From the NCBI RefSeq assembly GCF_901765095.1, contig NW_021963017.1, positions 238,253-302,252 of the forward strand: 64,000 nucleotides of DNA, in the 5' to 3' direction. This stretch comes from Microcaecilia unicolor (Eukaryota). Both the position numbers and the translations under genes were made by a program. Below are positions 51,907 through 53,500 of the stretch, piece after piece; within the stretch, counting starts at the first letter, position 1; each line of letters starts with the position of its first letter. The notes under the pieces are model-generated. The model was not told where the DNA came from, made no database searches, and was given only the letters and a program-made list of their open reading frames with translations.

Positions 51907-53500
51907 CAGTGGTGGAAATAAGTATTTGATCCCTTGCTGATTTTGTAAGTTTGCCCACTGACAAAGACATGAGCAGCCCATAATTGAAGGGTAGGTTATT
52001 GGTAACAGTGAGAGATAGCACATCACAAATTAAATCCGGAAAATCACATTGTGGAAAGTATATGAATTTATTTGCATTCTGCAGAGGGAAATAAGTATTT
52101 GATCCCCCACCAACCAGTAAGAGATCTGGCCCCTACAGACCAGGTAGATGCTCCAAATCAACTCGTTACCTGCATGACAGACAGCTGTCGGCAATGGTCA
52201 CCTGTATGAAAGACACCTGTCCACAGACTCAGTGAATCAGTCAGACTCTAACCTCTACAAAATGGCCAAGAGCAAGGAGCTGTCTAAGGATGTCAGGGAC
52301 AAGATCATACACCTGCACAAGGCTGGAATGGGCTACAAAACCATCAGTAAGACGCTGGGCGAGAAGGAGACAACTGTTGGTGCCATAGTAAGAAAATGGA
52401 AGAAGTACAAAATGACTGTCAATCGACAAAGATCTGGGGCTCCACGCAAAATCTCACCTCGTGGGGTATCCTTGATCATGAGGAAGGTTAGAAATCAGCC
52501 TACAACTACAAGGGGGGAACTTGTCAATGATCTCAAGGCAGCTGGGACCACTGTCACCACGAAAACCATTGGTAACACATTACGACATAACGGATTGCAA
52601 TCCTGCAGTGCCCGCAAGGTCCCCCTGCTCCGGAAGGCACATGTGACGGCCCGTCTGAAGTTTGCCAGTGAACACCTGGATGATGCCGAGAGTGATTGGG
52701 AGAAGGTGCTGTGGTCAGATGAGACAAAAATTGAGCTCTTTGGCATGAACTCAACTCGCCGTGTTTGGAGGAAGAGAAATGCTGCCTATGACCCAAAGAA
52801 CACCGTCCCCACTGTCAAGCATGGAGGTGGAAATGTTATGTTTTGGGGGTGTTTCTCTGCTAAGGGCACAGGACTACTTCACCGCATCAATGGGAGAATG
52901 GATGGGGCCATGTACCGTACAATTCTGAGTGACAACCTCCTTCCCTCCGCCAGGGCCTTAAAAATGGGTCGTGGCTGGGTCTTCCAGCACGACAATGACC
53001 CAAAACATACAGCCAAGGCAACAAAGGAGTGGCTCAGGAAGAAGCACATTAGGGTCATGGAGTGGCCTAGCCAGTCACCAGACCTTAATCCCATTGAAAA
53101 CTTATGGAGGGAGCTGAAGCTGCGAGTTGCCAAGCGACAGCCCAGAACTCTTAATGATTTAGAGATGATCTGCAAAGAGGAGTGGACCAAAATTCCTCCT
53201 GACATGTGTGCAAACCTCATCATCAACTACAGAAGACGTCTGACCGCTGTGCTTGCCAACAAGGGTTTTGCCACCAAGTATTAGGTCTTGTTTGCCAGAG
53301 GGATTAAATACTTATTTCCCTCTGCAGAATGCAAATAAATTCATATACTTTCCACAATGTGATTTTCCGGATTTAATTTGTGATGTGCTATCTCTCACTG
53401 TTACCAATAACCTACCCTTCAATTATGGGCTGCTCATGTCTTTGTCAGTGGGCAAACTTACAAAATCAGCAAGGGATCAAATACTTATTTCCACCACTGT
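51907..53500 (+). mobile_element. Tc1/mariner (Sleeping-Beauty-like) DNA transposon, apparently intact
   Basis: Terminal inverted repeats cagtggtggaaataagtatttgatccc... (51907-) and ...gggatcaaatacttatttccaccactg (-53500), with internal direct-repeat copies (IR/DR structure, ~200 bp each end) and TA flanking both ends. It encodes a 350-aa transposase. Confidence 0.85.
52232..53284 (+). CDS. Tc1-like transposase (HTH paired-like + DDE), uninterrupted ORF
   Basis: Strong similarity to Sleeping Beauty/Tc1 transposases: the GRR AT-hook region [54 protein letters not shown]. The likely true start is the internal Met at 52262 ([10 protein letters not shown]...). Confidence 0.85.

Follow-up and report, generated by a model that had tools for sequence, protein, structure and literature searches.

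An apparently intact, potentially autonomous Tc1/mariner transposon of the ZB-like clade in a 64-kb stretch of DNA

The stretch of DNA that we analysed, referred to here as the window, is 64,000 nucleotides long, and all positions below are counted within it. At 51907-53499 it carries a Tc1-type transposon of 1,593 bp, abutted at both ends by the dinucleotide TA, as read directly from the sequence. A first-pass annotation had placed an apparently autonomous, Sleeping-Beauty-like element at 51907-53500; the start was right, whereas the end lies one base earlier. The claim of apparent autonomy held up as well, in that all of the transposase domains, both intact ends and the TA duplication are present. 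On these features we are confident in describing 51907-53499 as a structurally intact, potentially autonomous Tc1/mariner copy of the DD34E/Tc1 group and of the type whose inverted repeats carry direct repeats (IR/DR), belonging to the ZB-like clade. Whether it is also likely to be mobile today is a separate and more doubtful matter, which we weigh below.

Architecture of the element and its transposase

The element starts CAGTGGTGG and finishes CCACCACTG, with CAGTG...CACTG termini, and the target as it stood before insertion, rebuilt from the flanks, reads GA-TA-TC. The terminal repeats of the two ends (Table 1), when aligned to each other, agree at 199 of 200 positions with TA on either side, which bears out the earlier description of nearly symmetric IR/DR ends of about 200 bp. 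The sole mismatch is at position 195, inside the right inner direct repeat. Each end holds a 20-nt direct repeat twice, at element positions 8-27 and 181-200, spaced 173 bp apart. The 20-mer, GGAAATAAGTATTTGATCCC, occurs four times in the window at no more than one mismatch (51914 and 52087 on the plus strand, 53300 and 53473 on the minus strand), against an expectation of 0.00 matches from dinucleotide shuffles. Inverted repeats of approximately 200-250 bp with one outer and one inner direct repeat per end are what distinguishes the IR/DR subgroup, and this is the arrangement found. By analogy with the IR/DR model of Sleeping Beauty (SB) and ZB, the direct repeats are presumed to bind the transposase.

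Between the repeats lies a single intronless transposase gene. Its open reading frame (ORF) had been reported as uninterrupted and 350 amino acids (aa) long. It is indeed uninterrupted, but the length did not stand: the first ATG, at 52262 and in a strong Kozak context (ACAAAATGG), gives a protein of 340 aa, the canonical length, and the 350 codons of 52232-53284 are reached only by starting from an in-frame GTG at 52232. The chance of a 340-codon stretch without a stop is approximately 7e-9 per start, by a hand calculation from the base frequencies of the window. The stop codon falls 15 bp short of the right repeat, and the 155-bp leader upstream of the ATG presumably has promoter function. 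We also observed an antisense ORF of 115 aa within the gene (52879-53226, minus strand), most likely a frame left open by chance on the strand opposite the coding sequence.

The N-terminal paired-like helix-turn-helix that had been recognized by eye was recovered by Pfam as HTH_SB (PF25787; aa 1-52, E 9e-25, 86.6 bits) and HTH_Tnp_Tc3_2 (PF01498; aa 72-140, E 1e-22, 80.4 bits), and structure entries of the SB PAI and RED subdomains match the same regions. DDE_3 follows at aa 149-300 (E 1e-14; 55.1 bits, cut-off 28.6), and all three domains exceed their curated cut-offs. The GRR motif that had been listed with these features is absent in its literal form; the corresponding stretch is RSGAPRK, a GRPR-like motif. 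The interdomain linker, RKVPLL, occupies aa 118-123. The catalytic residues were correctly identified at first reading: D153, D244 and E279 lie in DETK, FQHDNDPKH and NPIENLW, and the last two are separated by 34 residues, which is the D,D(34)E spacing that defines the Tc1 family. The bipartite paired-like N-terminal helix-turn-helix and the terminal inverted repeats with a duplicated TA likewise agree with the definition of the Tc1/mariner superfamily and its DD34E/Tc1 family.

The solved structure closest in sequence is the catalytic domain of SB100X (5cr4; E 1.5e-89), which aligns without gaps over aa 114-340 at 59% identity. The protein alignment, comprising 61 full-length relatives (338-341 aa) together with ZB and SB, places no gap in the transposase. 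The two findings that could have overturned the first description, a hidden frameshift or the loss of a DDE residue, were looked for against the 61 relatives and SB100X, and neither was found. In the course of this comparison we noted that His243 (52988-52990, in FQHDND), which precedes the second catalytic aspartate, is shared with SB100X. We take SB10 to have methionine at this position and M243H to be one of the engineered hyperactive changes of SB100X; histidine is the natural residue in the ZB-like clade.

Table 1. Features of the Tc1 element, in window coordinates
Feature	Position	Strand	Basis and remarks
Left TA target-site duplication	51905..51906	.	Left flank TGACCTGA, then TA, then CAGTG; read from sequence
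Left terminal inverted repeat, 200 bp	51907..52106	+	Starts CAGTGGTGGAAATAAG; inverted match to 53300-53499, 199/200
Left outer direct repeat, presumed transposase-binding site	51914..51933	+	GGAAATAAGTATTTGATCCC; four copies in window, 0 in shuffles
Left inner direct repeat	52087..52106	+	Exact copy, 173 bp inward of the outer repeat; repeat search
5' untranslated region, presumed internal promoter region	52107..52261	+	155 bp between left repeat and ATG
Transposase gene, 340 codons plus stop, intronless	52262..53284	+	ORF, Pfam, SB100X match, ratio of nonsynonymous to synonymous divergence (dN/dS)
PAI helix-turn-helix subdomain (aa 1-52)	52262..52417	+	PF25787; SB PAI entries PDB 2m8e and 6urs also match
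GRPR-like motif RSGAPRK (aa 57-63)	52430..52450	+	Same as ZB motif; SB has RSGRRRV there
RED helix-turn-helix subdomain (aa 72-140)	52475..52681	+	PF01498; PDB 5unk matches aa 63-120
Catalytic D153, codon GAT, in WSDETK	52718..52720	+	Aligned to SB100X D153
Catalytic D244, codon GAC, in FQHDNDPKH	52991..52993	+	Sequence and SB100X alignment
Catalytic E279, codon GAA, in NPIENLW	53096..53098	+	Sequence and SB100X alignment
Right terminal inverted repeat, 200 bp	53300..53499	-	Inverted match to left repeat, 199/200
Right inner direct repeat	53300..53319	-	GGAAATAAGTATTTAATCCC; one mismatch, the only left/right difference
AATAAA, presumed polyadenylation signal, within right repeat	53334..53339	+	Motif; presumed function
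Right outer direct repeat	53473..53492	-	Exact match
Right TA target-site duplication	53500..53501	.	CACTG, then TA, then right flank TCTTGGTT; read from sequence

Placement within the Tc1 family

To place the element we used the ZB sequences that Shen et al. 2021 (PMC7913693) give as supplementary data. The transposase aligns with ZB without gaps at 60.6% aa identity (DDE region 67.7%, DNA-binding domain 56.2%), as against 52.6% with SB10 overall and 42% in the DNA-binding domain, 50.6% with Tc1-1_DR and 47.4% with Mariner-6_DR. The full-length SB10 sequence behind these figures, which we take to be accurate, agrees with the fragments deposited in the PDB.

Much closer relatives were found by searching 5.8 billion protein clusters, which yielded 6,978 matches at E <=1e-30, the best of them 82-83% identical. 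These best matches come from Logan and ENA contigs and from a 171-member UniRef cluster of Xenopus tropicalis (P0010, 82.4%); a further match, P0004, is 82.6% identical, and P0004, P0008 and P0010 all fall within 82-83%. The 120 matches listed all behave like the query, at approximately 60% identity to ZB and approximately 53% to SB. The search of the 5.8 billion clusters brought up no protein at 90% identity or more, and the exact 340-aa transposase was absent from 15 billion sequences. In a neighbour-joining tree the query and its closest matches form one clade with a bootstrap of 100/100, ZB is the sister of that clade, again at 100/100, and SB and Mariner-6_DR lie outside.

The relationship extends to the whole element. 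The Repbase entry Mariner-15_DR is collinear with the query from end to end, at 79.6% nucleotide identity with 4 gap columns in 1,596. By region, identity is 82.1% in the coding sequence (CDS), approximately 75-76% in the repeats (76% between the two left repeats) and 74% in the leader, and the proteins are 80.6% identical. One of the DNA loci behind the closest matches, L001, is a full element with the same TA-CAGTG...CACTG-TA arrangement as the query, and its terminal sequence closely matches Mariner-15_DR.

A sister clade of ZB has been named "ZB-like" by Jia et al. 2022 (PMC9777934), who report that ZB shares 68% identity with ZB-like elements in the DDE domain and 54% in the DNA-binding domain, and who give within-clade CDS identities of more than 80% for SB and more than 90% for ZB. 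The query agrees with the ZB-like clade both in position, being sister to ZB with CDS identity to its relatives of approximately 80% or more, and in form, with approximately 340 aa, CAGTG ends, repeats of approximately 200 bp and a TA duplication. For Mariner-15_DR and P0010 the ZB-like label is our reading of the species, length and repeat size in the table of Jia et al. rather than a comparison of sequences. The ZB clade in the strict sense, with CDS identity above 90%, 341 aa and mostly CAGCG ends, does not accommodate an element with CAGTG ends whose 340-aa protein is 60.6% identical to ZB.

The same holds for SB in the strict sense, which bears on the original description of the element as Sleeping-Beauty-like. 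The description was apt for the architecture but not for the family, the identities being 52.6% to SB, 60.6% to ZB and 80-83% to the ZB-like matches and Mariner-15_DR. One could still suppose that the element is a true SB family member: its architecture and protein length are those of SB, it carries the Pfam domain HTH_SB, and SB100X is its top match among solved structures. Identity of 52.6% overall, and of 42% in the DNA-binding domain, is nevertheless far from the more than 80% CDS identity found within SB, and the tree sets SB outside ZB plus ZB-like at 100/100. The SB ends, which we take to start CAGTTGAAGTC, are moreover unlike the CAGTGGTGGAAATAAG of this element, which resembles the ends of ZB and Mariner-15_DR. 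SB membership is ruled out by the tree and the identities, to the point that we give it virtually no credence; as judged from sequence, the likeness to SB is one of architecture only.

Selection on the lineage and the question of mobility

We compared the CDS of the query with the closest DNA copies, the Mariner-15_DR-like loci L001 and L002, over 52262-53281. Nonsynonymous divergence (dN) is approximately 0.10 and synonymous divergence (dS) approximately 0.7-0.8, and dN/dS by the Nei-Gojobori method is approximately 0.13. Purifying selection has therefore acted strongly on the lineage during most of its divergence, a pattern that, on these sequences, is the one expected of a transposase that kept working.

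An intact ORF with a low dN/dS would also be seen if the transposase had been domesticated, that is, co-opted as a host gene that is no longer a transposon. Domesticated genes, however, lose the terminal features, and here both 200-bp repeats and the TA duplication are intact; the entire element, non-coding ends included, is collinear with mobile relatives. Purifying selection is equally expected for active transposons that spread horizontally and vertically. We consider domestication very unlikely.

For a tetrapod host, a dS of 0.7-0.8 to copies of zebrafish type is, by our own estimate, far too low for vertical descent over the several hundred million years since the fish-tetrapod ancestor, a hint of horizontal transfer at some point in the clade's past. 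Horizontal transfers have been proposed before for this group, with which the low dS agrees. No relatives of the transposase were found in viral contigs, and there is accordingly no hint of a viral vector. An exact 23-nt end motif gave 0 matches in metagenome contigs.

The recent history of this particular copy is harder to read. Its matched ends had been offered as a sign of youth, an argument that we do not retain: both ends are copied from the parent element rather than reset at insertion, as those of long terminal repeat elements are, and the identity of left and right repeats is therefore no clock. For a DNA transposon it is weak evidence of youth and provides no age estimate.

If the copy moves, it would presumably do so in the manner of SB and ZB, the paradigm from which DNA binding, catalysis and expression are taken here. 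The 340-aa transposase would be transcribed from the 5' untranslated region and polyadenylated at the AATAAA of the right repeat. On entering the nucleus it would bind the four 20-nt direct repeats through its PAI and RED domains and the GRPR-like motif, and it would synapse the two element ends. The D153/D244/E279 site would then make staggered cuts at the CAGTG termini, and the excised element would insert into a TA dinucleotide, duplicating it.

Intact ends and selection on the lineage together make the copy structurally competent for such a cycle, and there are precedents nearby. In vertebrate cells the native ZB element of the sister clade shows high activity (PMC7913693), and Passport is a native element with demonstrated activity (PMC2651795). 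We entertain, tentatively, the possibility that the copy, as a native Tc1 element in a non-mammalian tetrapod, is competent to transpose at present, representing a ZB-like sublineage that did not turn up among the 5.8 billion protein clusters searched (at most 83% identity), maybe horizontally acquired, and usable as a vertebrate vector without reconstruction.

Several observations weigh against current competence, and some of them speak for an alternative that we hold to be quite possible in its own right, namely that the copy is intact in looks only. On this alternative the copy would be recent but now immobile, through private missense changes, the altered inner repeat, or epigenetic or Piwi-interacting RNA silencing, and its ORF would be open because there had been too little time for it to decay. 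The transposase departs at ten positions from residues kept in at least 90% of the clade (S4, I16, Q56, T100, R124, V192, R264, T296, I320 and R325), and some of these private substitutions could matter, for example P56Q beside the GRPR-like motif, K264R and N296T. In the right inner direct repeat there is a G-to-A change where Mariner-15_DR has G, so that the A is private to this copy or its lineage. The observed/expected ratio of CpG is 0.34 in the element compared with 0.46 in the window, as might be seen after some time in a genome that methylates its DNA, or under silencing. The case for mobility is furthermore a structural one, drawn from a single copy, as no other copies or fragments of the element occur in the 64-kb window. 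We found no report of transposition of any ZB-like element in the searchable literature, and for most vertebrate Tc1 copies that look intact, movement has never been demonstrated.

These points are offset in part. The ten departures all spare the catalytic triad and are mostly chemically conservative (of S/T, I/V, R/K, Q/P, T/K and T/N types), the dN/dS of 0.13 indicates a lineage that was selected for function until recently, and native ZB, with comparable features, is active.

The flawless appearance of the copy might, finally, be a product of assembly, with reads from near-identical copies collapsed into a consensus that hides real lesions. In related genomes, intact ZB-like copies number from hundreds to thousands, the setting in which such a collapse would occur. 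A consensus would, however, tend to erase private substitutions and a mismatch between the left and right repeats, both of which are seen here, and the flanks are unique and join the element cleanly at TA. We regard an assembly product as improbable, leaving a real, structurally intact ZB-like copy as the reading that we prefer.

Surroundings and relation to known elements

Elsewhere the window is pieced together from decayed repeats. A pogo/Tigger-type DDE_1 ORF of 296 aa (3968-4858, plus strand, E 2.6e-48) is the remnant of a second, unrelated DNA transposon. Remnants of a long interspersed nuclear element (LINE) occupy 31836-35222 on the minus strand, where RVT_1 is weakly matched by a 467-aa ORF and Exo_endo_phos, again weakly, by fragments upstream of it. 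The best database matches of this ORF are only 31-37% identical, the named ones being in frogs and Anolis, and the repeat lineage is thus poorly represented. A DIRS-like retroelement lies at approximately 36600-41700 (plus strand), with a gag-like region at 37768-38904, reverse transcriptase/RNaseH at 39452-40633 and, in a different frame, an ORF of 810 aa at 38992-41424. The best relatives of its reverse transcriptase/RNaseH ORF, from Pleurodeles waltl and turtles, are only 49% identical, and this DIRS lineage appears, from the sequence comparison, to be unrepresented in the protein collection. A repeat landscape rich in DIRS elements is typical of caecilians (PMC8498967), so that the host may plausibly be a caecilian or some other amphibian with little annotation.

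A reverse-transcriptase fragment is present at 57.1-57.8 kb. Just upstream of the Tc1 element, 51107-51722 is a diverged direct duplicate (69-76%) of 48799-49764, which lies 2.3 kb further upstream; the two are probably copies of an unclassified repeat. Their similarity ends 184 bp before the Tc1 insertion site, short of any empty-site comparison. Tandem arrays were found at 63015-63369 (118 bp x 3.0, 96% match) and 21450-21739 (76 bp x 3.8, 88% match). Neither Rfam nor tRNA scanning gave a hit anywhere in the window.

Elements of this kind had been described in the first-pass annotation as rare in tetrapods. This is contradicted by the published counts of intact ZB-like copies, which run to hundreds or thousands in frogs, toads and a caecilian (PMC9777934). 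Jia et al. 2022 list elements of 1,618 bp with 340 aa and 210/210 repeats in X. tropicalis (742 intact copies), Bufo bufo (3,020) and B. gargarizans (1,047), and elements of 1,597 bp with 340 aa and 200/200 repeats in the caecilian Microcaecilia unicolor (5,188); intact ZB-like copies were also reported from 13 squamate genomes (PMC9777934). Intact TA-flanked IR/DR Tc1 elements are, on these counts, common in non-mammalian tetrapods. The published M. unicolor element, listed by Jia et al. as ZB-Micuni (CABFKJ010014846.1:2489-7508), was compared with the query by description (1,597 bp, 200/200 repeats), and if the host is M. unicolor, the query may belong to that already catalogued family.

Within the ZB-like clade, the query shares the 340-aa transposase, repeats of approximately 200 bp, CAGTG ends, TA duplication and overall length of approximately 1.6 kb. 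It differs as a distinct sublineage, at no more than 83% protein identity and a dS of approximately 0.7-0.8 to the nearest DNA copies. Even zebrafish Mariner-15_DR, collinear as it is, has terminal repeats only approximately 75-76% identical to those of the query. ZB itself (Tc1-8B_DR), the native active element of zebrafish, resembles the query in its IR/DR organization, repeats of approximately 200 bp, TA target, RSGAPRK motif, gapless protein alignment at 60.6% aa and a related direct-repeat core, AAATAAGTATTTGA. It differs in having 341 aa and CAGCG ends and in its terminal repeats, which align poorly with those of the query (127 of 217 columns), and it stands in the sister clade rather than in the same one.

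Among more distant elements, Sleeping Beauty (SB10/SB100X), reconstructed from salmonids, has in common with the query a length of 340 aa, the same D153/D244/E279 numbering, the PAI and RED subdomains and IR/DR ends, but it carries GRRR where the query has GAPRK, and its terminal-repeat sequence is unrelated. Passport (PPTN) and Frog Prince are likewise vertebrate IR/DR Tc1 elements that integrate at TA. For Frog Prince we used Tc1-1_DR as a stand-in, presuming that the two resemble each other. Passport belongs to another lineage as judged from primer sequences, its ends starting CAGTGCCTTGCATAAGTATTC and its protein MKTKELT (PMC2651795).

The clade, its architecture and a wealth of intact amphibian copies are already in print, and the present copy does not change that picture. 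It does add one vector candidate, and one data point on a sublineage that did not turn up in the protein search, to a group of elements whose interest is twofold. Intact vertebrate Tc1 elements mark recent or ongoing DNA-transposon activity and horizontal transfer among fish, amphibians and reptiles, and those that are native serve as ready gene-transfer tools, as ZB and Passport did. Should the copy prove to be a currently active native element of a tetrapod, it would provide a new gene-transfer vector for vertebrates without the need for reconstruction.

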